In this document: in pieces, positions 2,240 to 59,363 of the stretch
Position numbering within the stretch: position 1 is the first letter of the stretch
Layout of the letters: every line of letters starts with the position of its first letter
IMG/VR virus record: IMGVR_UViG_3300025704_000003
Direction: 5' to 3' (one strand)
DNA length: 64,000 bases
Source: a virus
Translations under genes and position numbers: made by a program
The notes under the pieces: model-generated
Told to the model about the DNA's origin: nothing
Databases searched by the model: none
The model's input: the letters and a program-made list of their open reading frames with translations, nothing else

Positions 2240-2658
2240 AAGTAGGATTTACAGCATCCACATTTGATTTACTTCACGCGGGACATGTTGCCATGTTACG
2301 TGAAGCAAAGTCTGTTTGTGACTATTTGATTTGTGGTTTACAAGTAGATCCAACGCTTGATAGACCAAAAAAGAATCAACCTGTTCAATCGATAGTAGAA
2401 AGACAGGCTCAGTTAGCAGCAATAAAATATGTTGATGAGGTAATTATTTATTGTACAGAATCTGATTTATGTGATATAATAAACATGTATCCAATTGATG
2501 TACGTATTCTTGGTGAAGAGTACAGAGATAAAGATTTTACTGGTAAGGATGAGTGTCGCAAACGTGGCATTCAACTTTATTTTAATAAGCGAGACCATAG
2601 GTTCTCGTCGTCTGATTTGAGAAAGAGAGTTCAATATGCAAATGACAGCAGTCCGTGA
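2236..2658 (+). CDS. glycerol-3-phosphate cytidylyltransferase-like (TagD family)
   Basis: FDLLHAGH (HxGH), YVDEV, SSSDLR. Confidence 0.85.
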   Translation: MKVGFTASTFDLLHAGHVAMLREAKSVCDYLICGLQVDPTLDRPKKNQPVQSIVERQAQLAAIKYVDEVIIYCTESDLCDIINMYPIDVRILGEEYRDKDFTGKDECRKRGIQLYFNKRDHRFSSSDLRKRVQYANDSSP

Positions 2659-3319
2659 CATTCGTCAGTATTTTATTGATGAACTAAAAGACGAAGCATA
2701 TACAATTGATAAGACCGGCGCTAAGACAATAGAAATGCTTGGCGCATCTTTTATTGCTGATGAGGCAGCTATCTTTGGAACAGTCAGCTATGATTATGTT
2801 CAAGAAGAATTAGAATGGTATGACAGCCAATCTACAAACATTAATGATATTCGCGAAGTACCTCCAAAAGCTTGGGAGTACGCTGCAAATAAACATGGTG
2901 AAATTAATTCTAATTATGGACATCTTATCTTTTCAGACAAATACTATAATCAATATGGTTGTGTGCTAGATGAATTGTTAGAAAGACCAGACGGCCGGCG
3001 CGCTTCTATGATCTACAATAGGCCGTCTATTTGGTTGGAGTTTAATGAAAATGGAAAATCGGATTTTATTTGTACTAACAGTGTCACTTACTATATTCGT
3101 GATAGCATTCTACATTCTGTAGTTCAGATGCGTTCTAATGATGTTGTCTTTGGATATAAGAATGATTACGCATGGCAACGTGAAGTAATGAGAAGATTAG
3201 TCAGAGATTATAACGGCTTAAGCCTTTATGATGACGGCGCTCAAATCGAAGAAGGTTCTATTACATGGCAAGTACAAAACCTGCACGTCTATGAAAAGCA
3301 CTTCCACCTTGTCAAGTAA
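2636..3319 (+). CDS. 42: dCMP hydroxymethylase (T4 gp42-like)
   Basis: DKTGAKTIEMLGASFIADE, ELEWY, GEINSNYG, DFICTN, MRSNDVVFGYKNDYAWQ and LHVY closely match T4 gp42, including the dCMP-specifying Asp. Confidence 0.88.
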   Translation: MQMTAVRDIRQYFIDELKDEAYTIDKTGAKTIEMLGASFIADEAAIFGTVSYDYVQEELEWYDSQSTNINDIREVPPKAWEYAANKHGEINSNYGHLIFSDKYYNQYGCVLDELLERPDGRRASMIYNRPSIWLEFNENGKSDFICTNSVTYYIRDSILHSVVQMRSNDVVFGYKNDYAWQREVMRRLVRDYNGLSLYDDGAQIEEGSITWQVQNLHVYEKHFHLVK

Positions 3320-3785
3320 GTGGGATCACCGCTATTTGGGATTAGCAAGAGAAGTCTCAAGTTGGTCTAAAGATCCGTCTACTCAGATCGGCGCAATCGC
3401 TGTTGGATCTAAAGGTCAAGTATTAGCTCAGGGTTATAACGGTTTTCCGCGTGGAATTTACGATGGCGATATCCGCTATAATGATAGAAAAACAAAATAT
3501 CAGTTTGTTGTGCACGCAGAACAGAATGTTATATACAATGCCACATATAACGGCGTATCATTAGATCAAGCAACTTTGTATGTGTGGGGTCTTCCTGTCT
3601 GCTCTGACTGCGCAAAAGGTATTATACAGGTAGGCATAACTCGTGTTGTAATGCCTGCTGCCGATTATCCTGATAAGTGGCTGGAATCCTTTGAGCGTAC
3701 AAGCGATATGTTTGGAGAAACTGGAGTTGAATATGAATTTATCGAATGTGATTACGAACCCTATAAGCAATATACCCAAGAATGA
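3291..3785 (+). CDS. cd: dCMP deaminase
   Basis: WSKDPSTQIGA, GYNGFPRG, HAEQN, PVCSDCAK; start uncertain (3291 ATG or 3309 TTG). Confidence 0.9.
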   Translation: MKSTSTLSSKWDHRYLGLAREVSSWSKDPSTQIGAIAVGSKGQVLAQGYNGFPRGIYDGDIRYNDRKTKYQFVVHAEQNVIYNATYNGVSLDQATLYVWGLPVCSDCAKGIIQVGITRVVMPAADYPDKWLESFERTSDMFGETGVEYEFIECDYEPYKQYTQE

Positions 3786-4698
3786 AAAGTCCCACGTGCA
3801 CGGGTGGACTCAACTGTGGCGAGATCAATTAAAAGCTTCTATTGACCACAAATGCACACCTCAAATTAAAAAAGCTGACGTAGTCTATATAGATCATGGG
3901 GCTAATTTTAGTGGTACTTTGAATTTGTTTGGTGGCGCTAACAAAGAAGTATATGACAGAATTAATCTTGTAATGTCATGCGATAACATTGTTTCGTTAG
4001 ATTGGGATATGCCTGATTATGGAGAGATGTTGAAGAAACGACTTGAAGCTCCTACAACATATAAAGGCATCACTCCTATGTGGTGTAATGCTGTCTCTAA
4101 ACGAATTAGAAGTATTACATCCCTCAAGCAGAAGGATCTAAAAACCGATGGCATTACCTTTGGAGATTCACACACAATCGCTTATAGCGGGGCTGGCGAT
4201 CGCGTGTACCGTACTGATGGTAAAACTTTATTTGGAACTATTCGAAAAGGTTTACGATCTGAAATATCGGAATCCATTGGAAAGCTTACATTATGTATGG
4301 GCTCAATTGATATTAGGCATCATGTTTTACGTCATGGCGATTTTTCTCTTAGATATACAATAAAAGAATATGTAAGACAAGGCAACGAATTATCTGACGA
4401 TGTATGGTTTACCGCTCCAGTGCCGGTAGAGTTTGAAGGTAGACGTATACCTAAATCAGGATTTTACAAAAAGACTCCATTCTTTGGTTCATGGAAAGAG
4501 CGGTGGGATCTTACAAACGAATTTATTGACGTGCTTAATGATGAGTCTAAAGGCAAAGTCATTATGCCACCAAAAGAATGGTATACAATGGATCCTGAAA
4601 AATACGCAAATACCTATATGGAACATGGTTCTAGTTTTCATATAGCCCCGCCATATTATAGACGCAACGATTGGGGAGTATCGCCTCTTGCCACATAA
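3733..4698 (+). CDS. putative DNA-base modifying enzyme: BGT-like N-terminal domain plus SGNH-like acyltransferase/hydrolase domain
   Basis: GGAG SD; N-terminal NLFGGAN resembles the T4 BGT NFFGGKPN loop; C-terminal FGDSH, GSIDIRHH and SFH. Confidence 0.45.
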   Translation: MNLSNVITNPISNIPKNEKSHVHGWTQLWRDQLKASIDHKCTPQIKKADVVYIDHGANFSGTLNLFGGANKEVYDRINLVMSCDNIVSLDWDMPDYGEMLKKRLEAPTTYKGITPMWCNAVSKRIRSITSLKQKDLKTDGITFGDSHTIAYSGAGDRVYRTDGKTLFGTIRKGLRSEISESIGKLTLCMGSIDIRHHVLRHGDFSLRYTIKEYVRQGNELSDDVWFTAPVPVEFEGRRIPKSGFYKKTPFFGSWKERWDLTNEFIDVLNDESKGKVIMPPKEWYTMDPEKYANTYMEHGSSFHIAPPYYRRNDWGVSPLAT

Positions 4699-5575
4699 TA
4701 ATCACGTTATTGATAAAATTAATAAAGATATTAATCCGTTTTACGGAGACCCGAAAGAGTACTATTTAGAATTAGCAGAAAACTGGGAGGATCCTTATGG
4801 AATCCCACATATTAGCCGGCATAACAATATTCGTGTTGTCCGTGATGATTTTTTGGTTGGCTCTAAAGTTCGTGGTGGCGATTGCCTCATCAGTAGCCTG
4901 GGCCCTCACATTGATACTATCGTTTACGTTCAACCTCGCACTGGCCTTGCTGGTGTTAGTATACTTGACGTGGCCAAGCGACACGAAAAAGACGTCATGC
5001 TTTTCATGCCCTCCTCAAAACGAATTAGCGATCACCAAGCCTGCTGCATCGAACGAGGGGCTCGTACTAGTTTTCATAGAATAGCAGCTATGCCTAATTT
5101 AAATCTAATTGCAAAGAAATGGGCCGATGAAAGAAAGAATGCTTTCTTTGTTCCGCTAGGTCTTAAGCATGAAATGGTAACGGCAGGCATTGTAAAGACA
5201 GCTTCTAAGATAAAAGAACCTGAAGAAGTATATACTGCCACGTCTACTGGGGTACTTACAAGAGCTTTACAAATCGCGTGGCCTAATGCCAAGTTTACTT
5301 CTGTTTGCGTGTCACGCAATATGAAGGCTGGTGAATTGGGTATTGCAGAGGCAGTATCAGAACCATTAGCGTTTACCGCGGCAGAGAAAAAAGATAATCT
5401 TCCACCATTCCCAACTATAGATACCTACGATGGTAAAGTATGGAAATATATTCCTAAAGATACAAATCGCGATATTCTATTTTGGAATGTAGGGCAGGAA
5501 CCAGTATTACAGAATCAAGCGTTACCAGATACAATAGATTCATATAGAGATTGGGAAAAGAATGTGGCTCAATGA
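4688..5575 (+). CDS. PLP-dependent enzyme (fold type II), similar to DNA-hypermodification PLP enzymes
   Basis: VVRDDFLVGSKVRG (Schiff-base Lys), STGVLTRAL, YDGKVW, LFWNVG. Confidence 0.75.
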   Translation: MPHNNHVIDKINKDINPFYGDPKEYYLELAENWEDPYGIPHISRHNNIRVVRDDFLVGSKVRGGDCLISSLGPHIDTIVYVQPRTGLAGVSILDVAKRHEKDVMLFMPSSKRISDHQACCIERGARTSFHRIAAMPNLNLIAKKWADERKNAFFVPLGLKHEMVTAGIVKTASKIKEPEEVYTATSTGVLTRALQIAWPNAKFTSVCVSRNMKAGELGIAEAVSEPLAFTAAEKKDNLPPFPTIDTYDGKVWKYIPKDTNRDILFWNVGQEPVLQNQALPDTIDSYRDWEKNVAQ

Positions 5576-6578
5576 AGAAGCAATTGATGTTCTTGTAAAT
5601 TATTATTATCCAAAAGCCGGTTGGTTACAAGATAATGTTAATTGGGGTGAATTGGACTATGAAGGTCCAGAAGCAAATAACATTATCAATGATCCTCTTA
5701 TGCAAAAGATTGATATCTACGATTGTAAAACGAGAAATGCTGCAGGCTTCTCAAACGTATTACAAGATCTAAGGTTCGGATCTAAAACTCCTAAGTGGAG
5801 ATGGCAGAAAGAAGATAGACGTAAGATTTCAGCATCAAACGATGATATTAACTGGACTATTGAAACCTGGCTATACACATTTCTTTGTCATCGCATAACT
5901 GGATCAGGGGCTTCATTTGAAAATGACCACGGTTATCGTAATAACATAATTCAACATTGGAGTAAACATAGAGACATTAAAGATATGGCAGAAGATTTAG
6001 CAGAGACTAAAGCTTCAGGCAAACCAATGTTTACGTCTATAGGCAATCAACCTCCGGCTCCAAAGAAAGGAGTTAGTAATGTTGACTTCATGGTAAATGA
6101 ATTGCCTGAAGTTATTAACAGGTTTACAGATTTTCTACTTTTGAAAAAAAGAGGACATAAAGAAATTGTAGATCATTTAAATGAGCATAATAAAAAAGCT
6201 GGTCATCGTAAATTTAATTTTCAGTATGCTGCCTTCTCTATGGATTGTTCTGACTATTTTCCAGAAAATGCTGACGTAGACTCTCATACATATTTAGGTA
6301 ATAACGCAGTAAGGTGCATGAAAAAATTATCAAGTGGGTGGAAGCCAGATAATTTTATGGACTTATTAAGAGAAAAAACTGGTGGTAAACCAAAAGATCT
6401 TGAAGATGTTATGTGTGACTTTGTTAGGTTCGGACAAAACTATGTACCACGTGGAAATGGAACGTTTGATCATATTCCTTCGACATTATCAAATGCATCT
6501 GGATGGGAATCCGGCTGGGAACAAAGACAAGGAATTCCGCCTATGAGGGGTGTACAACTAGATGAATTTATGGTATAA
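5562..6578 (+). CDS. aGPT-Pplase-like (amino acid/amine:DNA transferase family) protein
   Basis: KPMFTS, YLGNNAVRCM and DLEDVMCDFVRF resemble the aGPT-Pplase C-terminal ExxxCE/DF motif; adjacent to the PLP enzyme. Confidence 0.55.
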   Translation: MWLNEEAIDVLVNYYYPKAGWLQDNVNWGELDYEGPEANNIINDPLMQKIDIYDCKTRNAAGFSNVLQDLRFGSKTPKWRWQKEDRRKISASNDDINWTIETWLYTFLCHRITGSGASFENDHGYRNNIIQHWSKHRDIKDMAEDLAETKASGKPMFTSIGNQPPAPKKGVSNVDFMVNELPEVINRFTDFLLLKKRGHKEIVDHLNEHNKKAGHRKFNFQYAAFSMDCSDYFPENADVDSHTYLGNNAVRCMKKLSSGWKPDNFMDLLREKTGGKPKDLEDVMCDFVRFGQNYVPRGNGTFDHIPSTLSNASGWESGWEQRQGIPPMRGVQLDEFMV

Positions 6579-6584
6579 TAAACT

Positions 6585-7436
6585 ATGTTAAAAATTACAA
6601 TCATTGGCCACGGATTTGTTGGCAAGGCAATCGATTACGCATTTCAAGATGACGTAGAAAAACAAATTATCGATCCTAAATATGGGGTCGGTTTAGATGA
6701 TGTATCAATATCTGCTGATGTTACATTTATGTGTCTACCGACTCCAATGCACGAAAATGGACAGTGCGATACGTCTATCGTTGAACAACTTTTAAAGAAA
6801 GTTGCACAACGACGAAGCGGTCTAATAGTTGTTAAATCCACAATACCACCTGATAGAATAGAAAATTTATTCCGTGGTTCTGCTAAACATAGAATGGTTT
6901 ATAATCCAGAATTCTTGACAGAAAAGAATGCCAATGAAGATATTATAAATCCATTCGTACATATCTTTGGTGGCGAAAGCGAAGCTACTGAAAAGCTGGA
7001 AAGAATTTATAAAGAATACAGTATATGTAAACCATGTCCTTCATATCATATGGCAGCAACTGATGCTAGCTTTGTTAAATATGGAATCAATACTTTTCTA
7101 GCAACTAAACTAACATTCTTTAACGAATTTTATGATTCGATAAAAGAGTTCGGAGGTAATTATGGTCGTATCGCAAATGCAATTGGTACTGATCCAAGAA
7201 TTGGGCATGCCCATACTCGTGTCCCTGGCTTTGACGGCAAGCGTGGTTTTGGCGGTGCTTGTTTTCCAAAAGATGTTTCGGCGTTTATAAACTTTACTAC
7301 ACGTATGCCGTTGCTTGAATATGTCATGGATCGTAATAATAAGTATCGATCTGAATATGAAAAAGATGATAGAGAAAAAGAACAAAACATTCAGTATAAT
7401 ATGACTGGCGAAATAGCACATGTGAATGAACGATGA
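6585..7436 (+). CDS. ugd: UDP-glucose/GDP-mannose dehydrogenase family
   Basis: GHGFVG, CLPTP, KSTIPP, NPEFL, GFGGACFPKD. Confidence 0.9.
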   Translation: MLKITIIGHGFVGKAIDYAFQDDVEKQIIDPKYGVGLDDVSISADVTFMCLPTPMHENGQCDTSIVEQLLKKVAQRRSGLIVVKSTIPPDRIENLFRGSAKHRMVYNPEFLTEKNANEDIINPFVHIFGGESEATEKLERIYKEYSICKPCPSYHMAATDASFVKYGINTFLATKLTFFNEFYDSIKEFGGNYGRIANAIGTDPRIGHAHTRVPGFDGKRGFGGACFPKDVSAFINFTTRMPLLEYVMDRNNKYRSEYEKDDREKEQNIQYNMTGEIAHVNER

Positions 7437-8371
7437 AAGTATTCATAACAGGAATAACTGGCTTTATCGGGTTTCATCTGGCCCGTGAGCTTAAAGCTTT
7501 CGGGCATACTATTTTAGGTGTAGATAACTTTAACGCTTATTATGATAAAAACCTAAAAATGGATCGAGCAAAGATTTTAAATGATTCGGCTATACAAACG
7601 TATGCTGATGATATACGGCATTTTAATTACCTTCAAGATTATCTAGATGACGTAGATGTAATTGTTCACTTGGCTGCTTGGGCTGGAGTAAGAAACTCGC
7701 TGGACGATCCGTACACCTATATTGATAATAATATCAATGGAACACAACGAGTAATTGATCAGGCAGAAAAACTTAATATTCCTGTTGTCTATGCTTCTAG
7801 TTCTAGCGTCTATGCAGGACAAGAACCTCCATTTGTTGAGGATATGCAATTCAAGCATCATTTAAATCCTTATGCTTGGACTAAATATGCAAATGAATGC
7901 CAATTTAAAAGCAGTAAATTGCCTTCGTCAATTGGCTTTAGATTTTTTACAGTCTATGGACCTTATGGACGACCTGACATGGCTTTACATGGATTTACAA
8001 ACAATATCATCAAAGGTAGACCAATTGATGTTTATGGCTTTGGCGAAATGTCCCGCGATTTTACCTATGTACAAGACATCGTAAATGGTGTACAATTGTT
8101 AATAGATAAAGTGCTTAGAAGTAAGTCTCACGAAATCTATAACATTGGCAGCGGAAAATCAATTCCGCTTATGAAATTCGTAAATCTTATTGAAGAAAAT
8201 CTAGAACGTAAAGCAGACATTAATTATTGTGATATGCATAAAGCTGACATTCGTCACACATTAGCTGATATATCAGAGATCAAGAAACTGGGTTATAGAC
8301 CTATGACAAATATTGAAACTGGTATTGCTGAATTTGTATCATGGTACAAACAATATTATAACGTAAATTAG
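7433..8371 (+). CDS. NAD-dependent epimerase (UDP-glucuronate 4-epimerase-like)
   Basis: TGITGFIG, HLAAWAGVR, ASSSSVY, YAWTK, RFFTVYGPYGRPDMA. Confidence 0.9.
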   Translation: MKVFITGITGFIGFHLARELKAFGHTILGVDNFNAYYDKNLKMDRAKILNDSAIQTYADDIRHFNYLQDYLDDVDVIVHLAAWAGVRNSLDDPYTYIDNNINGTQRVIDQAEKLNIPVVYASSSSVYAGQEPPFVEDMQFKHHLNPYAWTKYANECQFKSSKLPSSIGFRFFTVYGPYGRPDMALHGFTNNIIKGRPIDVYGFGEMSRDFTYVQDIVNGVQLLIDKVLRSKSHEIYNIGSGKSIPLMKFVNLIEENLERKADINYCDMHKADIRHTLADISEIKKLGYRPMTNIETGIAEFVSWYKQYYNVN

Positions 8372-8382
8372 GAGACACACAT

Positions 8383-9429
8383 ATGTCAGTAATGGACAAA
8401 CTCAAAAAGAATTCTAAGTTAAAAAACACGGAGGTTCTTTCTGAGTCAAAATTCTTTAATGAAAAAGATATGACTCCGACAGATTCGCCAATGATTAACG
8501 TGGCGCTATCTGGATCTGTAGATGGAGGTTTGGCTTCTGGTCTTACAGTTCTTGCAGGTCCTTCAAAGCATTTTAAAACTTCTTTTGCTTTGATTATGGC
8601 AGCAGCATATTTGAAAAAGCATAAAGATGCTGTAATGTTGTTCTATGATTCAGAGTTTGGTTCACCTCAGGCATACTTTGAGCAATTTGAAGTTGATACA
8701 TCTCGTGTTCTTCATACACCAATTACAAACGTAGAAGAACTAAAATTCGATATGATTGGTCAATTAGAATCGTTAGACCGCGGTGATAAAGTAATTGTCG
8801 TCATTGATTCTATTGGCAACCTTGCTTCTAAAAAAGAAATGGAAGATGCACTAAACGAAAAGTCAGTTGCTGATATGTCAAGAGCAAAAGCTCTTAAAGG
8901 ATTGTTCCGTATGGCCACGCCATATCTTGCTATGAAAAACATTCCTATGTTAGCAGTTAATCATACGTACCAAGAAATCGGCTTGTTCCCTAAAGCTATT
9001 GTTTCTGGTGGCACAGGCATTTATTATTCTGCAGATAATATTTGGATCCTTGGTCGTCAGCAAGACAAAAAGGGTACAGAGATTCAAGGGTACCATTTTG
9101 TAATCAATGTAGAGAAATCACGCTATGTTAAAGAAAAATCTAAAATTCCTATTACTGTTTCTTGGGACGGTGGTGTCCGTAAGTATTCTGGTTTGCTCGA
9201 TTGCGCTCTTGCTGGTGGTTATGTTACTAAGCCTTCCAATGGCTGGTATGCTATGGTCGATCAAACTACTGGCGAAGTTGGACCAAAAGTTCGGCACGAT
9301 GCCACTCTCGATCAGTCCTTCTGGGACCCAATCTTTGCTGATACGGATTTTAAAGAGTTCTTGAAAAAGCAATACACGATCGGCCACAGAGAACAAGTAT
9401 CCATGGATGAAATCATTGAGGAAGCATAA
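8383..9429 (+). CDS. uvsX: UvsX RecA-like recombinase
   Basis: AGPSKHFKT, FYDSEFG, DSIGNLASKKE, SGGTG. Confidence 0.96.
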   Translation: MSVMDKLKKNSKLKNTEVLSESKFFNEKDMTPTDSPMINVALSGSVDGGLASGLTVLAGPSKHFKTSFALIMAAAYLKKHKDAVMLFYDSEFGSPQAYFEQFEVDTSRVLHTPITNVEELKFDMIGQLESLDRGDKVIVVIDSIGNLASKKEMEDALNEKSVADMSRAKALKGLFRMATPYLAMKNIPMLAVNHTYQEIGLFPKAIVSGGTGIYYSADNIWILGRQQDKKGTEIQGYHFVINVEKSRYVKEKSKIPITVSWDGGVRKYSGLLDCALAGGYVTKPSNGWYAMVDQTTGEVGPKVRHDATLDQSFWDPIFADTDFKEFLKKQYTIGHREQVSMDEIIEEA

Positions 9430-9734
9430 TGATTAATATCGACAAACTCTCAGAAGGGGTAGATTACGAATTAATTCCATCACCAGAAAACGATCAGTCT
9501 TGGTGGATCAGAGTTCTTACTGGTCCATACGTTGAAACAGTAATACAATTTGGCGCTATTACAATTAATGGGCCAGATGAAGCTATTCATTATAATTTTG
9601 AAATCATTGAAACGCCTGATGATACCTTAAATACTGACGACGAAAACTTTCAACAATATACCGGATTAGTACTGCACGACGTGATTGAAATGGCAATCTT
9701 AAAAGATGAATTGCTTATGGAAGACAAAAAATGA
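9429..9734 (+). CDS. hypothetical protein (T4 gp40 syntenic position)
   Basis: Acidic 101 aa ORF between uvsX and gene 41. Confidence 0.6.
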   Translation: MINIDKLSEGVDYELIPSPENDQSWWIRVLTGPYVETVIQFGAITINGPDEAIHYNFEIIETPDDTLNTDDENFQQYTGLVLHDVIEMAILKDELLMEDKK

Positions 9735-10150
9735 AAATACTAATAATGGGATTGCCAGGTTCTGGTAAAACACATCTAGCCAAGCGGCTACAGATCCATC
9801 TGAATTGTGCTTGGTACAATGCTGATAAAGTACGGGAAATGGCGAATGACTGGGACTTTAGTGATGCTGGTCGTAGGCGACAATCAGAGCGTATGAATAC
9901 GATTGCAACATTTGAAGGTACTAGAGGTCGTACTGTCATATGTGACTTTGTTTGTCCAACAGGTGCTACTCGTCAAGAGTTCAACGCCGATATCATAATT
10001 TGGATGAACACTATCGAAGCAGGCCGGTTTGATGATACCAACAAGATCTTCGAAGAGCCAACCGACTTTGATTATGTTATTGACGCATTTCAATCTGATG
10101 AGTGGATCCTAGATTTAGCTAACCGGATGAAGGAGACATACCATGTTTGA
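9731..10150 (+). CDS. adenylylsulfate kinase-like P-loop kinase
   Basis: MGLPGSGKT, NADKVR, WDFSDAGRRRQ, CDFVCP, FEEP. Confidence 0.75.
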   Translation: MKILIMGLPGSGKTHLAKRLQIHLNCAWYNADKVREMANDWDFSDAGRRRQSERMNTIATFEGTRGRTVICDFVCPTGATRQEFNADIIIWMNTIEAGRFDDTNKIFEEPTDFDYVIDAFQSDEWILDLANRMKETYHV

Positions 10151-10553
10151 TTGGAAAAAGCCGTCGGCGCAAATGTTAGGGCGATGGCAGCCTTGGCATA
10201 AAGGCCACACGGAATTATTTAAAAAAGCTTTGGGTCAAACCGGGCAAGTTGTTATTATGGTTCGTGATGTTGGCGGGATTGTTGGTGAAGATGCTGGCGG
10301 TGGAAGGACAGAAGCTCAAACTGATAATCCCTTTGGATTTGATTTTGTTTCTTCACAAATTGTTGAAGGATTGGCCCGTGAGGGGTTTACTATCAATAAA
10401 GAATATGTTATAATGGAGGTACCAAACATCGTAGACATTAGCTATGGTCGTGGCGTCGGATATACCTTCACGCAGCACGATCTTGGTAATGATATTCATA
10501 ATATTAGTGCTACAAAAATCCGTGCAAAAATGCGTGAAGAGGGAATGCTTTGA
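10143..10553 (+). CDS. HxGH nucleotidyltransferase (cytidylyltransferase/ATP-sulfurylase-like)
   Basis: GRWQPWHKGH, ISATKIR. Confidence 0.75.
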   Translation: MFDWKKPSAQMLGRWQPWHKGHTELFKKALGQTGQVVIMVRDVGGIVGEDAGGGRTEAQTDNPFGFDFVSSQIVEGLAREGFTINKEYVIMEVPNIVDISYGRGVGYTFTQHDLGNDIHNISATKIRAKMREEGML

Positions 10554-11914
10554 CGAACATTGAACAAACAATTTTGAGAAACCTTCTGGTGAATGATAAA
10601 TTCATGCGGAAGGTTTTACCTTTTATACATAATGAATATTTTGAAGGTGTCTATCGTCAGCTGTTTAAGGAAGTCGGCAAATACGTTTCTAAATATAATA
10701 AACTACCAACTCAGGAATCATTTAAGATTGAGTTAGATGATTCTGATAGCTTTAACGATGAACAATATCGGCATGCTGTTGAGATCCTACCAGAGATCTT
10801 TAAAGTCGAAGATATTGATTATGAATGGCTAATCGATAAAACCGAGAAGTGGTGTCAAGATAGAGCATTGCACAATGCAGTAATGGAATCTATCAGTATT
10901 ATTGACGGTAAACACCAAACGCTTTCAAAGAATGCGCTACCAGAGATCCTCTCTGATGCTCTGGCAGTTAACTTTGACGCGAATATCGGTCATGACTATA
11001 TTGAAAACTTCAATGATCGTTATGAGTTTTACCATAAAGAAGAAGAACGTATTGCCTTTGATCTCGACTACTTTAATAAGATTACTAAGGGCGGCTTGCC
11101 AAACAAGACATTGAATATTGCTTTGGCTGGCACCGGTGTCGGTAAGTCTTTGTTTATGTGCCACATGGGCGCTGCAGCATTGACTGACCAAAAAAATGTT
11201 TTGTATATTACTATGGAAATGGCAGAAGAACGTATCGCTGAACGCATTGATGCTAATCTTCTTAATATCCCTATTGATCAGCTAGACAAACTTTCGAAAG
11301 ATATGTTTTCACAAAAGGTATCTCAACTAGCAAAACAAACAACTGGCCGATTGATCGTAAAAGAATATCCAACGGGTTCAGCACACTCTGGGCACTTTAG
11401 GGCATTACTAAATGAGTTAAAACTTAAAAAGAAATTTGAACCAGATATTATCTTTATTGATTATTTAAATATCTGTTCGTCTTCACGTATGAAAGGTATG
11501 GGCGGTGCTATCAACTCTTACACTTATGTCAAAGCGATTGCAGAAGAACTTAGAGGCCTTGCAGTTGAATTTGACGTTCCGGTCGTATCTGCAACTCAGA
11601 CGACGCGTAGTGGTTACTCTAACTCAGATGTTGGGCTTGAAGATACGTCCGAGTCTTTTGGATTACCCGCAACGGCCGACCTTATGTTCGCACTTGTTTC
11701 AACCGAAGAACTTGAACAACAAGGACAACTGATGGTTAAGCAATTGAAGAATCGCTATAATGATCCAACATATAAGAAAAGGTTTATTCTAGGAATAGAT
11801 AGATCTAAGATGCGTCTATTTGACGTAGACGAAAATAACCAATCTCTAATGGATGATACTCCAGTATTTGATAAATCAGAAGCAAATAAAAGATTTGAGG
11901 ACTTTAAACTATGA
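10550..11914 (+). CDS. 41: replicative DNA helicase gp41
   Basis: AGTGVGKS, TMEMAEE, IDYLNI, SATQTTRSG, KQLKNRY. Confidence 0.96.
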   Translation: MTNIEQTILRNLLVNDKFMRKVLPFIHNEYFEGVYRQLFKEVGKYVSKYNKLPTQESFKIELDDSDSFNDEQYRHAVEILPEIFKVEDIDYEWLIDKTEKWCQDRALHNAVMESISIIDGKHQTLSKNALPEILSDALAVNFDANIGHDYIENFNDRYEFYHKEEERIAFDLDYFNKITKGGLPNKTLNIALAGTGVGKSLFMCHMGAAALTDQKNVLYITMEMAEERIAERIDANLLNIPIDQLDKLSKDMFSQKVSQLAKQTTGRLIVKEYPTGSAHSGHFRALLNELKLKKKFEPDIIFIDYLNICSSSRMKGMGGAINSYTYVKAIAEELRGLAVEFDVPVVSATQTTRSGYSNSDVGLEDTSESFGLPATADLMFALVSTEELEQQGQLMVKQLKNRYNDPTYKKRFILGIDRSKMRLFDVDENNQSLMDDTPVFDKSEANKRFEDFKL

Positions 11915-12591
11915 CCATGGAAGCTCGCCTAATTTCACACAGTCAGCCATCTTACCGTATTCATGGCGGAGAATTGGCAATAGGAGGTTTAGATAACATT
12001 GCGGATCTCATCGCGTTTGCCGCCCGTGTCTCCAATCCGTCGAATCAGCGGAACACAAAGACAACACAAAAACTCTTGGAGTACCTCGTCAAGCACAAGC
12101 ACTGGTCACCATTCGAAATGGCGTCAGCGTGCATCGAAGTCACCACGACAAGAGACATCGCCAGACAGTTACTCCGGCATCGTTCGTTTTCTTTTCAGGA
12201 GTTTAGTCAGCGCTATGCTGATGTACGTGATCTTGGTAATAATTTTGTAATCCGAGAGGCACGCCTACAAGATACTAAGAATCGTCAGAATAGTGTTGAG
12301 ACTGATGATGTACATCTTCAAAGAGCGTGGCATGCCCATCAGCAAAAAGTAATCGAAGCGGCGAAGCATGCTTATGACTGGGCTATTGAAGCAGGCATTG
12401 CCAAAGAGCAAGCCAGAGCTGTTCTGCCGGAAGGCAATACCGTTTCTAGATTGTATGTGAATGGTACTATTAGATCATGGATTCATTATATCGAACTTCG
12501 ATCTGCAAATGGAACACAGAAAGAACATATGGATTTGGCTATCGAAGTAGGTAAAGCTATTGAAAAAATATTTCCAATAAAGCTAAATTAA
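11911..12591 (+). CDS. thyX: flavin-dependent thymidylate synthase
   Basis: HWSPFE, RHRSFSFQEFSQRY, AKEQARAVLP, TQKEH. Confidence 0.95.
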   Translation: MTMEARLISHSQPSYRIHGGELAIGGLDNIADLIAFAARVSNPSNQRNTKTTQKLLEYLVKHKHWSPFEMASACIEVTTTRDIARQLLRHRSFSFQEFSQRYADVRDLGNNFVIREARLQDTKNRQNSVETDDVHLQRAWHAHQQKVIEAAKHAYDWAIEAGIAKEQARAVLPEGNTVSRLYVNGTIRSWIHYIELRSANGTQKEHMDLAIEVGKAIEKIFPIKLN

Positions 12592-12623
12592 CTGTGTACA
12601 TTGCTTTTAAAACATGTTAAGGT
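12587..12623 (+). promoter_or_regulatory. early promoter (TGTACA-N17-TAAGGT)
   Basis: Member of the repeated AATTAACTGTGTACA promoter family. Confidence 0.7.
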
Positions 12624-12654
12624 ATACTCATATATAAAAAAATGAGGCAGTACC

Positions 12655-13143
12655 ATGAAAAAGTTAATCGCATCAGTAATGATTAACACTATAGTTGCAA
12701 CAAGCGTTATGGCTATCGGAGTAGACGCGGCAGAAAAGGTAGAACAAGAAAAACAATTAGAATGCTTAGCGCTTAACGTTTATTATGAGACACATTCTCG
12801 TAGCTTAGCGGATGCAATGGCAGTCACTGATGTTGTTTTAAATCGTGTAGAAAGCACACGTTATCCAAACACACCATGCGATGTAGTTCATCAAGGATAT
12901 AAAAAAGGCAACCGTTATTGCCAATTTAGCTGGTATTGTGATGGCAAATCAGATACTCCACACGATGATGAAGCATGGGAAAAATCACGTAAGTTTGCTC
13001 GGGACATGTATATCCATGGTGAATTTCGTGGAATTACTGAAGGCGCAACACACTATCACGCTACTTATGCTAAACCATTCTGGTCAAAGAAACTTAACCG
13101 TATTGCTCGTATCGGAGCACACATATTTTACTGGGAAAAATAA
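12655..13143 (+). CDS. cell wall hydrolase (SleB/Hydrolase_2)
   Basis: CLALNVYYE, VVLNRV, CQFSWYCDG, GATHYHA, IGAHIFY; signal peptide. Confidence 0.9.
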   Translation: MKKLIASVMINTIVATSVMAIGVDAAEKVEQEKQLECLALNVYYETHSRSLADAMAVTDVVLNRVESTRYPNTPCDVVHQGYKKGNRYCQFSWYCDGKSDTPHDDEAWEKSRKFARDMYIHGEFRGITEGATHYHATYAKPFWSKKLNRIARIGAHIFYWEK

Positions 13144-13500
13144 ATGAAGGATTCAATCATGACGACAGACAACTTAACTATAACTCTAGGTGATACTACA
13201 TTTGATTTCCCAGAACTCGATCTAATTGATTATAAGTTCGGTGAAGATAAATATATGCAAGAGCTAAAAGAATATATTGACTCGACGTATAAAGGTCACT
13301 ACGCTACAAATAAGTTTCAATCGACTGAAGTTATTATTGCTAGAGGTCACGGTACTGGTTTCTGTATGGGTAATGTTGACAAGTACGCAAATCGTTATGG
13401 CAAAAAAGGTACTAGAGAGGATGCGCGCAAGGATCTTCTAAAAGTCATTCATTACGCGCTATTACAATTACATGTACACGATAGTCAAGAGGAAGAATAA
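13144..13500 (+). CDS. DUF3310-like protein (gp1.7-like nucleotide kinase family)
   Basis: HY, GFCMGNVDKYANRYGKKG, DLLKVIHY. Confidence 0.7.
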   Translation: MKDSIMTTDNLTITLGDTTFDFPELDLIDYKFGEDKYMQELKEYIDSTYKGHYATNKFQSTEVIIARGHGTGFCMGNVDKYANRYGKKGTREDARKDLLKVIHYALLQLHVHDSQEEE

Positions 13501-13615
13501 ATACACAGCTTATGGCGAAGACGGACGAGTGATAATTATATCACACAGCCCACGTATAGTCAGGGATTACGCCAAATACGTCATAAATAATCTTGTAAAC
13601 GTTGAAGCAACGTAG
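13472..13615 (+). CDS. small hypothetical protein (47 aa)
   Basis: MYTIVKRKNKYTAYGEDGRVIIISHSPRIV...; fills the gap before the tmRNA. Confidence 0.4.
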   Translation: MYTIVKRKNKYTAYGEDGRVIIISHSPRIVRDYAKYVINNLVNVEAT

Positions 13616-13850
13616 ACACATACTGGACCCGGGGGCGGTACCCGGCAGCTCCACCATAAGTACATAATGTGTATTTTTGATGGGGCTGAAATAGGATCGA
13701 CAGGTGTGAAAGTGACGTGGAGTTTACCGGCTGACTGCGAAATAGGTCAATCACTACAAATGCAAACAATAATTTTGCACCATCTGATTACGCACTAGCT
13801 GCATAATTAAGAGGGCGGCCACTGCCTAGTAACAGAAGTGTGGCGTTTTA
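13594..13850 (+). ncRNA. ssrA: two-piece (circularly permuted) tmRNA; tag peptide ANNNFAPSDYALAA*
   Basis: T-arm CCGGG-GGCGGTA-CCCGG and CAGCTCC-A-CCA (13646-13656) precede the 5' end GGGGCTGAAATAGGATCGAC (13682); G3-U70 Ala pair; tag ORF 13762-13806; outer ends approximate. Confidence 0.93.
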
Positions 13851-13868
13851 ACTTCTAAGGGGACAACT

Positions 13869-14099
13869 ATGGACATTCTAAACAAAGTAAAAACATGGGC
13901 TGCTGGACTAGCAGAAGTCGGTATTAGTATCGCCGCTCTCATGATTGTACTTGAAGTATTGGGCGTGGGAACACTTCCATTCATTCCTGCTGTAAGCGTT
14001 GTGGCTAATGTAAGTGCTATGATAGCCGCATTGGGATCACAAGGCCTTGTAGGTTTACTTGCTGTTTGGGTTCTATACGAAATCTGGAATCGAAAATAA
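13869..14099 (+). CDS. small membrane protein (2 TM)
   Basis: Hydrophobic 76 aa ORF with SD. Confidence 0.75.
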   Translation: MDILNKVKTWAAGLAEVGISIAALMIVLEVLGVGTLPFIPAVSVVANVSAMIAALGSQGLVGLLAVWVLYEIWNRK

Positions 14100-14123
14100 C
14101 TTTCTTATAAGGGAAATAAACTA

Positions 14124-14492
14124 ATGAAATTTGCTGCTATTACTGCTGCTGTGTTGCTGGCCTCAGCAACAACTATTCAAGCCGCTGAGCTTGGAGCCAC
14201 TGGTATCTCACTTGGTGCTACAACAACTGCTGAATATAATGTCGATGTTGAAAACATGACCGTTGAACTTACTCCAGAAATGGGTTATGGTCTTTACGGC
14301 ATGGACTTTACACTTTCAACTGATCTCATGATTTACAACGACGAGTTTGTATTCATGGATACAAATCCAACACTTGACTTTAAAGTCGGTTATGGTATCT
14401 TCGACAACGCAGAAGTATATGTTGAAACTGATTATGATTTAGAAAACGAAACTCGCGGCGATGTCGTAATTGGCGCTAGCTTTTCTTTCTAA
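14124..14492 (+). CDS. small outer-membrane beta-barrel (porin-like) protein
   Basis: Signal peptide, alternating beta-strand pattern, C-terminal GASFSF (BAM signal Phe). Confidence 0.65.
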   Translation: MKFAAITAAVLLASATTIQAAELGATGISLGATTTAEYNVDVENMTVELTPEMGYGLYGMDFTLSTDLMIYNDEFVFMDTNPTLDFKVGYGIFDNAEVYVETDYDLENETRGDVVIGASFSF

Positions 14493-14508
14493 TATATAGA
14501 AGAAGTAT

Positions 14509-14555
14509 CATCCACTATCGGATGCGCGTGGGGCCGAGGTTAGCCCCACACTTTA
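14509..14555 (+). terminator. tandem hairpins/terminator
   Basis: CATCC/GGATG and GTGGGGC/GCCCCAC stems followed by a T-rich tract. Confidence 0.5.
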
Positions 14556-14581
14556 TAATTTTTTGTAAATAAGGACTGATA

Positions 14582-15352
14582 ATGAAAAATGTTATTCTAG
14601 CCGCAGCCTTTTCCTTGGCTGCTCCTCTCGCAAATGCTACTACAATTGTTAATACCGGATCTGATTCGGGCGGGTTTAAAGCAGTACTAGATATGGTTGG
14701 TACTAAAATCGATCATAATTTTGTACAAGCTGGAAATCCAGTGGTAGCGTCTACCTACTTTGATGGTGGCGATGTGCTCACAATGTGGAGTACAGAATGG
14801 CCAGGTGATTCAGAAATGCCAACAGTGGCAATTGATGATTCAACCATCGTAGCTCTTCAAACATATGAAACAGTAATGTGCAGTCGTACATTCAACTCGG
14901 TTGATGATATGGCAGGTCAGACCGTAAAGGTCGCAACTTGGGGTGGCGTTGATGCTGTAACTAAATTTATTAATGAGTTAGGTGAAGCAAATAATGTAAA
15001 TTTTGAGATTGTTCCATATGAAGGTTCAGGCGGAACAACTCGTGGTTATCTTGCTAATGATGCAGATACTATTTTTACTATTCAAACACGACAAGAAAAA
15101 ATTGAAGCAGACGGAAATTGTTTTGCCTTTAGCGCAAATGGTGATCTAGACTTTGCATTTGTTGATATTATTCTTGCCGTTAATGCATCAGAGGCCGTTG
15201 TATGGCAAGCGCGCGCAGCCGTAGCCGAACTAATGTCAACTGATGAATGGTTGGCAGCATTTGAAGGAACTGAGACTTATGTCGTAAATGATGCAAATGC
15301 AAATATGATTGTTGATAAAGTTAAAGCTGCTGTAGCTCTCAATACTCAATAA
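14582..15352 (+). CDS. periplasmic solute-binding protein (TctC/Bug-like)
   Basis: Signal peptide; GSDSGG, IVPYEGSGG and ADTIF resemble the Bug VPYxGxG motif. Confidence 0.6.
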   Translation: MKNVILAAAFSLAAPLANATTIVNTGSDSGGFKAVLDMVGTKIDHNFVQAGNPVVASTYFDGGDVLTMWSTEWPGDSEMPTVAIDDSTIVALQTYETVMCSRTFNSVDDMAGQTVKVATWGGVDAVTKFINELGEANNVNFEIVPYEGSGGTTRGYLANDADTIFTIQTRQEKIEADGNCFAFSANGDLDFAFVDIILAVNASEAVVWQARAAVAELMSTDEWLAAFEGTETYVVNDANANMIVDKVKAAVALNTQ

Positions 15353-16500
15353 TATTCTATACAAGCTTGTAATTGATTATGGGAAGACCGATATGTTTCG
15401 TACATATCGGTTTTTTCTTTTCCAGATACGAATAATGAAAAATGAAAATCCTGACTTGATAAACAGTATTCTTCCGGTATTACAACACCATCATGCAAAT
15501 GAAAATTTGAAGCAACGCCCGCTCCTTCTACAGATTTATAATCGCCAACACTTTTTATGGTTCCGGCCTTTAACTTAGTTTCTTTCCACAAATGTCTTTT
15601 AAATTCTGGTAAAGGCATTTCTGCAAAGACATTAGGTAAAAATTCATTGTCACATAAATCGTCGTACATAACCATTCCTTGGCCGATACGTGGATTTAAA
15701 TCAATGAATTTAATCGTGTCATCAAAATAATAAAAGTCAGCAACCATTGATAGATTTTTTATTTTAAGTCCGTCTACTAATTTTTGATAGAAATAAGTCA
15801 CGGTATGTTTTATTTTTCCTGGAACTTCATTTGTGGGTATTCCTTCAAATGAGTAATTTCTTGGTTGCCAATGTGTCTCAGTCCTATTATTCACCATTAT
15901 GATGCCTTTACACCAATAGAGAGGCGTGACTCTTCCAGAAGAATTGACATAAGCATAAAGCGCGTATATCTCTGAGTTGTCTGGTAAATGTTCTTGAACC
16001 ATCAATTGATTTTGCGTGTTGTTAAAGTCTTTATCAATCCATGTATTAAAACTTACATGCTTTAACAATTCATCTTTATTTTTAAATGCAGTGTATGGAA
16101 AGTTATGATGCTGATCTTTTGTGCCAGATCCAACAACAGGTTTTACAAAAACAGGTTTATCTCCAAATGCGTTTAGATCTTCAGCATTTTCAGGCAATAC
16201 ACTTTTAGGTGTAATAGTAAACCCTAAAGATCTGGCGTATTCATCCATTTTAAATTTATTAGTAAGTATTTCAACTGACTCTTTTGTTAGGTTATTAATT
16301 CCTAATTGCTGTTCTAATTTGTATTGTAATGGCAGTAAGCTTTCTGACATTGTAAATATTCGATCATAGTTGCCTTCGATCTTTTCAAAATCATCTTCAT
16401 CAGTTATAATAGTTGACTTCTGCTGAAATTTAGCTAACGCTGTTTGAATAGCCTGGCACCGATAATACCCTCGTTTGTATCCTAATATTAAATTATTCAT
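15346..16500 (-). CDS. ATP-grasp domain protein
   Basis: LTNKFKM, VFVKPVVGSGT, MVQEHL, FIDLNPRIGQG. Confidence 0.8.
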   Translation of the reverse strand: MNNLILGYKRGYYRCQAIQTALAKFQQKSTIITDEDDFEKIEGNYDRIFTMSESLLPLQYKLEQQLGINNLTKESVEILTNKFKMDEYARSLGFTITPKSVLPENAEDLNAFGDKPVFVKPVVGSGTKDQHHNFPYTAFKNKDELLKHVSFNTWIDKDFNNTQNQLMVQEHLPDNSEIYALYAYVNSSGRVTPLYWCKGIIMVNNRTETHWQPRNYSFEGIPTNEVPGKIKHTVTYFYQKLVDGLKIKNLSMVADFYYFDDTIKFIDLNPRIGQGMVMYDDLCDNEFLPNVFAEMPLPEFKRHLWKETKLKAGTIKSVGDYKSVEGAGVASNFHLHDGVVIPEEYCLSSQDFHFSLFVSGKEKTDMYETYRSSHNQLQACIEYY

Positions 16501-17756
16501 GTGTATATCGCTATGACTCGTAATAGGTTGTTATAGAATAAATCAGTTAAAAAGAATCCATACAGAATTGGGAACGTTTCCCACTTTCTTATAAGAAATC
16601 CAATTCCAGTTGTGACTATCAGACATGTTATTATCCAAAATTTTATTGGGTATATGTATATGCTCATAACAGAGATGAATACAAAAATGCCAATAATAAA
16701 ATAGTGCTTATATCTTTTATATAGATCCGCAATATATCCTAGTTGATTAAAATACAACCATGATAAAACTAAGCATGCTACTAATACGATTGGAATATAA
16801 TACAATACGTCTTGTAGCATGTAAATGTTTTCTAAATCAAAAGTAAATCCACGAGTAACTACAAGATAATATATTAGTACTTCACTTCCAACAATCGGTA
16901 TTCCTAAAATAATAAGCGGAAGAAGAGAACTTAATGCTCCACTATTATTAGCAGCTTCTGCTGCAGCTATTTTATCTATGTCCTTCTTCATAAAATTAGC
17001 GCTTAGATAGCTGCCTAAAACATTTGTAATTCCAGGAACTAAGCCACACCAAAATCCTACAAAACTACCGGTGGCCGTAGCCTTCCAAGTGCTTAGATCA
17101 TACGCAAACTTTGTAATTTTATTTTTACCAGTAAAATCTTTCTCAGCAAACTTAAGTAACTCAGGGACAATATAGAGACCAATCATAATTGTGCTAAAAG
17201 GTATGCCAAGGGTTAGATATGTAAATCCAAATGTTCCCCATGTTTCTTTTGTCAGATTATCATATCCGATCTTGGCTAATATTCCACCAAGAATAAAAAG
17301 AACTATGGTTTTCCAATAAGCCTGCTTTGTCATTATTGTTAGGAATATAATAGCAATGCTGATAACAATTAATTGAATCGTAGAATTGTAAAATTTAAAT
17401 AACTGAAATATAAATGGAAGTGATATTAGAAATACCACGATTGCAAAAATAGATCCTATCGTACTCGATATTGCGTTACTACTTACCGCATAATGTCCTT
17501 TGCCTTCTAGAAACATTTTATGGCCGTATCTTGCAGTAGTTACAGCTCCTGCATCTCCTGGTATTCCATAAAGAATAGCAGTTACGCTGTTTGTATAGTT
17601 TGATGTAATAAGCAAAGCCACATAAAATATCATAATCCCAATTGGATCAAATGTGGCAAGTATGGGATAAAGTGTGGCAATTGCTAGGAAAGGACCAGCG
17701 CCTGGAATAATGCCAAAGACTGTTCCGGCAAGAATGCCGAATAGCGCATAAATCAA
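16497..17756 (-). CDS. tctA: tripartite tricarboxylate transporter permease TctA-like
   Basis: GIIPGAG, TAILYGIPGD, GLVPG, AAAEAANNSG, LPLIILGIP; many TM helices. Confidence 0.85.
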   Translation of the reverse strand: MIYALFGILAGTVFGIIPGAGPFLAIATLYPILATFDPIGIMIFYVALLITSNYTNSVTAILYGIPGDAGAVTTARYGHKMFLEGKGHYAVSSNAISSTIGSIFAIVVFLISLPFIFQLFKFYNSTIQLIVISIAIIFLTIMTKQAYWKTIVLFILGGILAKIGYDNLTKETWGTFGFTYLTLGIPFSTIMIGLYIVPELLKFAEKDFTGKNKITKFAYDLSTWKATATGSFVGFWCGLVPGITNVLGSYLSANFMKKDIDKIAAAEAANNSGALSSLLPLIILGIPIVGSEVLIYYLVVTRGFTFDLENIYMLQDVLYYIPIVLVACLVLSWLYFNQLGYIADLYKRYKHYFIIGIFVFISVMSIYIYPIKFWIITCLIVTTGIGFLIRKWETFPILYGFFLTDLFYNNLLRVIAIYT

Positions 17757-19896: not shown

Positions 19897-19933
19897 ATTA
19901 ACTGTGTACATATGATAAGTACTGTGCTATAAT
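19897..19933 (+). promoter_or_regulatory. early promoter (TGTACA-N17-TATAAT)
   Basis: AATTAACTGTGTACA...TGCTATAAT. Confidence 0.85.
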
Positions 19934-59291: not shown

Positions 59292-59363
59292 ATACGGTGT
59301 ACAACAACGTAAGAATGTTGTATAATAATACAGTTAATACTACAGCAATACAAGGAAAAATAA
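59287..59363 (+). promoter_or_regulatory. gene 32 control region: late promoter, early promoter and an A-rich AATAC-repeat leader
   Basis: TATAAATA 59287; TGTACA 59298-N17-TATAAT 59321; three AATAC repeats. Confidence 0.75.

Follow-up and report, generated by a model that had tools for sequence, protein, structure and literature searches.

A five-gene unit in the beta-glucosyltransferase slot of an uncultured T4-like phage probably makes an amino-acid-derived 5-substituted cytosine

The IMG/VR record IMGVR_UViG_3300025704_000003 derives from an uncultured T4-like phage and was analysed over a window of 64,000 nucleotides, the whole stretch of DNA considered here. Positions 2636-6578 hold a core unit of five genes, which encode a homologue of the T4 dCMP hydroxymethylase gp42, a dCMP deaminase, a two-domain SGNH protein, a pyridoxal 5'-phosphate (PLP) enzyme and a protein resembling the amino acid:DNA transferases (AADTs). 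Our analysis suggests that this unit probably makes an undescribed amino-acid-derived 5-substituted cytosine, which would shield the DNA from nucleases. The unit sits between the DNA polymerase gene and uvsX, the slot of the T4 beta-glucosyltransferase. A first-pass annotation, made from the sequence alone, had placed a candidate new cytosine hypermodification pathway in this slot. Its statement that T4 carries b-gt between gene 42 and uvsX is borne out by NC_000866, where the order reads 43-imm-42-b-gt-segA-uvsX-40-41, and every gene that it listed was recovered in place on the + strand. The core features, together with uvsX and thyX to their right, are as follows.

2636-3319, + strand: predicted dCMP hydroxymethylase, homologue of T4 gp42 (PDB 1b49, E 1.7e-71)
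3228-3785 (longest open reading frame, ORF), + strand: dCMP deaminase (Pfam E 3.7e-17; phrog_174 E 1e-40)
3733-4698, + strand: SGNH two-domain protein, 321 aa (phrog_13881; AlphaFold2 (AF2) fold)
4688-5575, + strand: fold-type II PLP enzyme of the M6 gp52 family, 295 aa (phrog_7093, E 6e-34)
5562-6578, + strand: protein of helix-hairpin-helix (HhH) glycosylase fold, AADT-like, 338 aa (AF2 fold; E281-D-x-x-C285-D)
8383-9429, + strand: uvsX recombinase, conserved on the right-hand side of the slot
11911-12591, + strand: thyX, flavin-dependent thymidylate synthase (Thy1 E 9e-44)

Conservation was followed in a sample of 80 IMG/VR loci that carry a homologue of the transferase-like gene (5562-6578), drawn from a total of at least 589 stretches that match. 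In 45 of the 80 loci the available upstream DNA exceeds 4.5 kb, and 61 have enough downstream DNA. Many members of the three families to which the SGNH, PLP and transferase-like proteins belong come from Tara and other marine metagenomes.

The first gene of the unit points to cytosine. Residues 5-226 of its product align with residues 7-225 of T4 dCMP hydroxymethylase (PDB 1b49) at E 1.7e-71. The motif FICTN falls at T4 Cys148 and VVFGYKNDYAWQ at T4 Asp179; the T4 counterparts of FICTN and KNDYAWQ are FMCTN and RNDYAWQ. Both the catalytic Cys and the dCMP-specifying Asp are kept, the latter as the first-pass annotation had read it. The Cys and the N-D pair are likewise kept in 60/60 gp42 homologues adjoining the cassette and in a distant thymidylate synthase (TS) homologue, 29% identical, on contig L020. 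Identity to the gp42 proteins of cultured T-even-like and Aeromonas T4-like phages is 46-55%. Matches to ordinary TSs and to MilA reach no more than E 1e-9 to 1e-5 (MilA, E 3e-5). By homology, the 2636-3319 product is a true T4-type, cytosine-specific enzyme, and its closeness to gp42 makes it very likely a hydroxymethylase producing 5-hydroxymethyl-dCMP (5-hm-dCMP). The separate thyX, which had also been noticed earlier, is a source of dTMP independent of this enzyme.

The PLP enzyme belongs, as judged by profile comparison, to the family of the DNA-adduct decarboxylase M6 gp52. M6 gp52 matches phrog_7093 at E 2e-159, and the window protein matches the same PHROG at E 6.3e-34. Alignment of the two by hhalign gave a probability of 79% and E 1.6e-5 over 207 columns, spanning the SK(V/I)RG lysine motif and the C-terminal block PFP...YD.K.WK...FWN.G, so the assignment of a PLP enzyme to this gene is upheld. 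K60 is invariant in the family and aligns with SKIRG of M6 gp52; we take K60 in S-K-x-R-G to be the PLP-binding lysine, on the model of 1-aminocyclopropane-1-carboxylate (ACC) deaminase-like enzymes. A precomputed PF00291 match is present in 10 among the 120 relatives listed for the protein. M6 gp52 itself is a PLP-dependent decarboxylase proven in the synthesis of 5-(2-aminoethyl)-2'-deoxyuridine (5-NedU) (PMC8989533).

Among cultured phages, the PLP protein has its nearest matches, at 30% identity, in Erythrobacter and Microcystis phages, where they fall under genes whose annotation is DNA modification methylase or DNA methyltransferase. In Erythrobacter phage vB_EliS_R6L the gene in question, gp1, is large and crosses the record start. 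These annotated methylases would be another link of the PLP family to DNA modification.

The last gene of the unit encodes a protein with the fold of a base-flipping DNA enzyme. Its AF2 model has a predicted local distance difference test (pLDDT) score of 88.5 and a predicted template modelling (pTM) score of 0.87. When the model was compared exhaustively with 48,161 chains, the best solved match was 8z2m, which is PaMx11 gp46, also called PUGT (Z 9.4; root-mean-square deviation 3.7 Å over 203 residues). This amino acid:DNA transferase makes N-alpha-glycinylthymidine (PMC11472151). After PUGT came archaeal 8-oxoguanine glycosylases (AGOG, Z 9.0-8.4), the queuine salvage enzyme DUF2419 and further glycosylases of HhH type, and the 16 matches next below PUGT are all of the HhH-glycosylase fold class. 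An Atlas shape search returned, at TM 0.66, a viral cluster that bears the name 'amino acid:DNA transferase', and another cluster with PF18723 and PF18724, and Foldseek of the 338-aa model against the PDB gave weak matches only (AGOG, E 0.35-0.44). The model thus has the HhH/AADT-type fold that had been expected of an aGPT-Pplase-like protein, with PUGT as the top solved match; membership in the aGPT-Pplase/ADDT Pfam families, in contrast, did not hold.

The motif E281-D-x-x-C285-D, here E281-D-V-M-C285-D, is kept in 80/80 loci, and conservation of E281, C285 and D286 is 90% or higher over 55 relatives of 23-46% identity. PUGT has the similar E243-T-x-x-C247, and E243 and C247 are invariant in 11/11 clade-2 AADTs aligned. 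The structural alignment of the model with PUGT ends at model residue 296 and chain residue 258, 11 residues past C285 and C247, respectively, and the two offsets agree. In PUGT, C247 is the proposed C6 nucleophile and E243 holds a metal at O4 (PMC11472151). The fold, the E-x3-C motif and the gene context together suggest a link of 5562-6578 to the AADTs. We call the protein AADT-like rather than a member of the AADTs because sequence methods fail to join the two families: when the transferase-like family was compared by hhalign with PaMx11 gp46 alone, and in global mode, no alignment reached significance.

The SGNH protein had been listed only as an unknown 321-aa product. Its start is taken as ATG 3733 and not TTG 3691, because the homologues measure 316-330 aa. 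The AF2 model (pLDDT 87) consists of two domains. Residues 136-316 form an SGNH esterase/acyltransferase domain, for which SGNH folds fill the top 50 matches (Z 11.8 to 8.6); in a second structural search all top matches were SGNH proteins (Z 12.5 to 10.3), and Foldseek gave a probability of 1.00. The first 135 residues fold into a small alpha/beta domain that carries a Gly-rich loop and for which an Atlas feature search returned no usable match. Both the block I Gly-Asp-Ser nucleophile and the block V His are present. GDSH (G144-D145-S146-H147), GSID and H303 are invariant in the family, and GDSH is kept in 61/61 loci. Alignment of the family with the T4 beta-glucosyltransferase by hhalign gave nothing (probability 1%), and PDB sequence searches with the three unknown proteins (SGNH, PLP and transferase-like), as single sequences and as profiles, gave nothing useful.

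These three proteins are a conserved set that accompanies gp42. All 45 upstream-complete loci carry gp42; 43 of them have the PLP gene, 42 the SGNH gene and 36 the deaminase gene. The gene order varies, either gp42-SGNH-PLP-transferase or gp42-transferase-PLP-SGNH, and the set is constant. The earlier proposal that an amino-acid/amine transfer toolkit is paired with a hydroxymethylcytosine enzyme gains support here, since the unknown genes accompany gp42 almost always. A profile search of 1.84 billion representatives further yielded seven metagenomic fusions of 639-790 aa, in which the SGNH protein is N-terminal and the transferase-like protein C-terminal. On the distant contig L020, the fusion is followed in turn by a PALP gene, a TS homologue with the Cys and N-D residues, and MazG; another distant contig carries, in this order, a deaminase, dUTPase_2, the fusion, a 293-aa gene, a 178-aa gene and a TS homologue, and a third, L019, carries the fusion and a PALP gene. 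A predicted complex of the separate SGNH and transferase-like proteins scored 0.11 against a mark of 0.32, which tells neither for nor against binding.

The unit is also delimited by a sequence motif. With no more than 1 mismatch, TGTACA-N17-TATAAT has 14 copies in the window, where 0.93 would be expected, and 0/100 shuffles reach 14. Copies at 2452-2480, 6551-6579, 19905-19933 and 59298-59326 are joined by 10 near-copies; 13 of the 14 lie on the + strand, and TG often precedes the -10 box. A general sigma-70 scan gave 44 sites versus 44.7 in shuffles, and only TGTACA-N17-TATAAT is enriched. It is probably an early or middle promoter of this phage. Two exact copies bracket the conserved unit, and the copy at 6551 marks the end of the core.

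2452..2480, + strand: exact copy of the putative phage promoter motif, ~155 nt before the gp42 start
6551..6579, + strand: exact copy of the putative phage promoter motif, at the end of the transferase-like gene and just before the gene for a UDP-glucose dehydrogenase (UGDH)-like protein

Because of the fusion, the distant contigs that repeat the set, the co-occurrence and the bracketing by the promoter motif, we read the three unknown proteins as one system.

No 5-HMUDK-like kinase was found in the 64-kb window, in agreement with the first-pass annotation, which had seen no kinase for the hydroxymethyl base. Two ORFs to the right of uvsX came into question.

9731-10150: P-loop kinase ORF, first half of phrog_10255 (230 positions)
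10143-10553: HxGH nucleotidyltransferase-like ORF, second half of phrog_10255

In other phages these two ORFs (9731-10553) are a single protein, phrog_10255, with a possible NadR-like or 3'-phosphoadenosine-5'-phosphosulfate (PAPS)-like role. The pair was rejected as a kinase of the hydroxymethyl base: phrog_10255 is unrelated to phrog_800, the family of M6 gp54 and of the 5-hmU DNA kinases, and it is present in only 13/61 loci. In BLASTP of the P-loop ORF to PaMx11 gp49, the P-loop alone matches. The search was carried beyond the window to a 151.7-kb relative (83% complete), in which M6 gp54 and phrog_800 gave only P-loop matches of 31 positions. Relatives were also searched for a dCTPase. 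In close relatives, the DNA polymerase gene and then a PRA-PH/MazG-type pyrophosphohydrolase gene lie just upstream of the equivalent of the window start, and distant cassettes carry MazG or dUTPase_2. These proteins are candidate dCTP-excluding enzymes; the candidate in relatives is of the MazG/PRA-PH type and not of the gp56 type.

What the data show is the identity of gp42, the family of the PLP enzyme, the folds and the linkage of the genes; from these we infer a reaction scheme with its order, donor, nucleophile and product. The gp42 homologue would make 5-hm-dCMP, leading to 5-hydroxymethylcytosine (5hmC) in DNA, with the MazG/PRA-PH-type pyrophosphohydrolase upstream in relatives as a candidate to exclude dCTP. 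Once the DNA is replicated, the AADT-like protein would flip out 5hmC and C285 would attack C6, as proposed for PaMx11 gp46, and the leaving group on the 5-methylene would be replaced by an amine or amino-acid nucleophile. Because no DNA kinase is present, phosphate is probably not this leaving group. Activation most likely comes from the SGNH protein, the hydroxymethyl group being esterified, for example, via an acyl-serine enzyme; alternatively, it may perform a tailoring acyl transfer. The PLP enzyme would then trim the attached amino acid, probably by decarboxylation as in M6 gp52 and ViI gp226. In its most specific form, the proposal is that abundant marine T4-like phages have swapped the glucosylation of 5hmC for a kinase-free route, in which an SGNH-made ester as leaving group, an amino acid placed on the 5-methylene of cytosine by a new family of Cys-dependent HhH transferases, and PLP-dependent decarboxylation lead to a new aminoalkyl-type cytosine. 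We put this detailed version forward as a tentative idea, nearer to doubtful than to likely.

Several observations weigh against an amino-acid-derived cytosine. A TS homologue of RB69, long taken for gp42, makes 5-hydroxy-dCMP and resembles MilA, and this precedent tempers the assignment of 5-hm-dCMP here (PMC13326640). The deaminase adjoining gp42 means that some 5-hm-dUMP may form. The PLP protein falls below the Pfam PALP threshold (E 0.073; 12.8 bits versus a cut-off of 35). In the SGNH protein, the Asp that usually stands three residues before the His of the triad is not evident, the sequence reading SSFH, and the role of this protein, the acyl donor and the nucleophile are guesses. The 338-aa protein has no Pfam, PHROG, NCBIfam or PDB sequence match, Pfam being empty to E 10. 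Only 1/55 relatives touches PF18724 (E 0.00099), and hhalign of the family against the 11-member clade-2 AADT alignment gave a probability below 3%. The lead of PUGT (Z 9.4) over AGOG (Z 9.0) amounts to a tie, and such Z values in helical proteins can mean a common arrangement only. The putative correspondence of C285 with PUGT C247 was judged by the offsets from the alignment ends.

Seen this way, the 338-aa protein could be a DNA glycosylase-type repair or anti-defence protein, with no modification pathway and plain 5hmC in the DNA. The matches to the AGOG, DUF2419, AlkA and Nth folds nearly equal that to PUGT, and sequence membership in the AADT families is lacking. Against this stand the almost unbroken association with gp42 and with a PLP enzyme from the family of M6 gp52, the fusion to the SGNH protein, a conserved E-x3-C pair like the catalytic pair of AADTs and the position in the T4 b-gt slot. 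Type IV restriction attacks 5hmC DNA that lacks protection, so that a hydroxymethylcytosine phage without any further modification gene would be unusual. We consider a repair or anti-defence role improbable.

The deaminase bears on the identity of the modified base. Its true start may lie downstream of 3228, because the protein of a relative measures 157 aa. The gene directly follows gp42 and is found near the cassette in 36/45 loci, and some dCMP deaminases accept 5-substituted dCMP. It is therefore conceivable that 5-hm-dCMP made by gp42 is converted to 5-hm-dUMP and incorporated as 5-hydroxymethyluracil (5hmU), which would then be the substrate of the transferase-like and PLP enzymes; the characterised AADT and PLP enzymes all use 5hmU derivatives (PMC8989533). 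Set against this, dCMP deaminase is common in T4-like phages for the supply of dTMP, it is missing near the cassette in 9/45 loci, and thyX is present. Phages that hypermodify thymine use a dUMP-specific (Asn) hydroxymethylase and 5-HMUDK, neither of which was found here, and the transferase-like family cannot be aligned to the thymine-type AADTs, which fits a different substrate. Thymine as the modified base appears unlikely to us, and we retain cytosine.

The cassette is embedded among genes of sugar-nucleotide metabolism.

265-1047, + strand: kdsA
1016-1699, + strand: kdsB
1898-2239, + strand: WbuC-like cupin
2236-2658, + strand: RfaE-domain-II/TagD-like nucleotidyltransferase
6585-7436, + strand: short nucleotide-sugar dehydrogenase-like (UGDH-like) protein, 283 aa, accessory and not core
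7433-8371, + strand: extended short-chain dehydrogenase/reductase (SDR), sugar-nucleotide epimerase/dehydratase, accessory
43174-43863: sulfotransferase-like gene
44413-45039: class I methyltransferase
45036-45737 and 45734-46378: two GT25 lipopolysaccharide (LPS)-type glycosyltransferases

The first-pass annotation had counted the UDP-glucose dehydrogenase and a uronate epimerase among the pathway genes and had considered a uronic acid decoration. The UGDH-like protein has the N-terminal NAD-binding and central domains and the catalytic-Cys motif GGACFPKD, without the C-terminal UDP-binding domain, and reaches 143 bits with TIGR03026 versus the cut-off of 190 for a UDP-glucose 6-dehydrogenase. 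The 7433-8371 product is indeed an extended SDR epimerase/dehydratase, but uronate is one among several equal readings of its substrate; the model for HldD, the heptose (ADP-heptose 6-) epimerase, scores slightly above TviC.

If the neighbouring genes did contribute, the hydroxymethylcytosine adduct would further bear glucuronate, galacturonate or 3-deoxy-D-manno-octulosonate (Kdo). The sugar genes are packed round the cassette in one direction, overlapping or nearly abutting, and the arrangement recurs in the closest relatives (e.g. loci L022 to L025, L027, L064 and L077). DNA glycosylation with phage-made nucleotide sugars is known in RB69 and DLP3 (PMC13326640). Their distribution, however, argues otherwise: the UGDH-like gene is present in 20/61 loci, the SDR in 15/61, kdsA in 8/45, kdsB in 4/45, the cupin in 12/45 and the nucleotidyltransferase in 17/45. 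The UGDH-like gene and the SDR have their own promoter motif at 6551, and many loci have the start of uvsX 29-208 nt past the transferase-like gene. In Phage C48C1 the epimerase and UGDH genes adjoin uvsX without any SGNH or transferase-like homologue. The UGDH-like protein is without the UDP-binding domain, and the cassette contains no glycosyltransferase; the only ones seen are the two GT25 genes at 45036-46378, which sit in an LPS-type cluster. The dehydrogenase and epimerase are thus not supported as pathway members, and neither is the uronic acid decoration, the sugar genes being absent from most related loci. A sugar-acid adduct is, in our estimate, very improbable. The cluster of GT25, methyltransferase and sulfotransferase genes, together with kdsA and kdsB, suggests auxiliary metabolism of the envelope glycan. 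Most likely, kdsA and kdsB and the genes for the cupin, the nucleotidyltransferase, the UGDH-like protein and the epimerase are lineage-specific neighbours outside the pathway, which we presume to serve an envelope glycan of the LPS-core type.

The first 12.6 kb of the window form a single, tightly packed + strand array. From left to right, it comprises kdsA, kdsB, a 78-aa ORF, the WbuC-like cupin, the nucleotidyltransferase and the gp42 homologue; then the dCMP deaminase, the 321-aa, 295-aa and 338-aa proteins, the UGDH-like protein and the extended SDR; and finally uvsX, a 101-aa ORF, the P-loop kinase, the HxGH nucleotidyltransferase-like ORF, the gp41 helicase and thyX. The nearest record is Phage C48C1 (Kyanoviridae), with UvsX 76.5% identical. 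Searches of 50,697 phage records returned no near-identical DNA match to 2636-8371, no tblastn match to the 338-aa protein and no cultured phage bearing the full cassette. In Acidovorax phage ACP17, the interval between uvsX and the gp41 helicase (10160-15853) holds genes for 7-deazaguanine (queuosine-type) synthesis. Because ACP17 holds such genes there, the uvsX neighbourhood seems to be a hotspot of DNA-modification genes in T4-like phages. Three further genes were located in the window.

16497-17756, - strand: TctA-family transporter gene
22179-23222, + strand: radical SAM/SPASM enzyme
54128-54913, + strand: second radical SAM enzyme

To our knowledge, the characterised amino-acid-type DNA hypermodifications are all on thymine and all start with a DNA kinase. 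Full-text literature searches found no published AADT/PLP-type modification of cytosine, and the paper on the thymidine pathways has cytosine only in its reference list. If the proposed pathway is true, its product would be a new natural DNA base, and two enzyme families, the SGNH protein and the divergent transferase, would newly be seen to act on DNA bases. It would also represent a new way of activating a DNA base and would explain a sugar-free protection of hydroxymethylcytosine DNA in a large group of ocean phages. The cassette enzymes would be candidate tools for labelling 5hmC.

The proposed system can be compared with three known ones. The thymidine pathways of M6, PaMx11, ViI, PhiW-14 and SP10 consist of a dUMP hydroxymethylase, the 5-HMUDK kinase, an AADT/aGPT-Pplase protein and a PLP decarboxylase (PMC8989533, PMC11472151). 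As in those pathways, a C5-hydroxymethyl pyrimidine would be made here at the nucleotide level by a TS-family enzyme, and the genes are clustered and include a member of the M6 gp52 PHROG and a base-flipping HhH-fold protein with Glu-x3-Cys. Unlike them, the base would be cytosine, since the enzyme is gp42-type with Asp and not a dUMP hydroxymethylase. There is no P-loop 5-HMUDK, and the two-domain SGNH protein stands in its place. The transferase-like family is missed by the Pfam ADDT and aGPT-Pplase models and by hhalign, and W146 and K150, which bind glycine in PUGT, have no evident counterpart in 5562-6578.

With the glucosyl-hydroxymethylcytosine system of T4 (gp42, gp56 dCTPase, gp1 kinase, alpha-gt and beta-gt), the unit shares a closely similar gp42, its location between gene 43 and uvsX, and a dCMP deaminase. 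It differs in having neither alpha-gt nor beta-gt, in the MazG/PRA-PH-type candidate that takes the place of the gp56-type dCTPase in relatives, and in thyX, which is found instead of td. The arabinosyl-5-hydroxycytosine system of RB69 and DLP3 likewise uses a TS-family dCMP enzyme to feed a post-replicative decoration of cytosine in a T4-like phage (PMC13326640). Its TS homologues, however, are MilA-like and make 5-hydroxy-dCMP, whereas the enzyme described here is gp42-like (1.7e-71 versus 3e-5 for MilA), and its decoration relies on glycosyltransferases and UDP-arabinose and not on AADT-like and PLP proteins (PMC13326640).

A part of the unit also occurs in cultured Aeromonas phages. A 795-aa protein of phages 44RR2.8t, 31, 25, B614 and AhMtk13a (phrog_17781) belongs over its first 334 residues to the SGNH-protein family (phrog_13881, 27-31% identity), and B614 and AhMtk13a appear in the match lists of both gp42 and the SGNH family. 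Its C-terminal 460 residues are unlike the transferase-like family (hhalign, nothing), and tblastn with the window PLP protein matched no Aeromonas phage. The gene (6007-8394 in Aeromonas phage 44RR2.8t.2) lies elsewhere in the genome, beside a predicted sodium/galactose transporter. These Aeromonas phages are a possible cultured entry point to the system.

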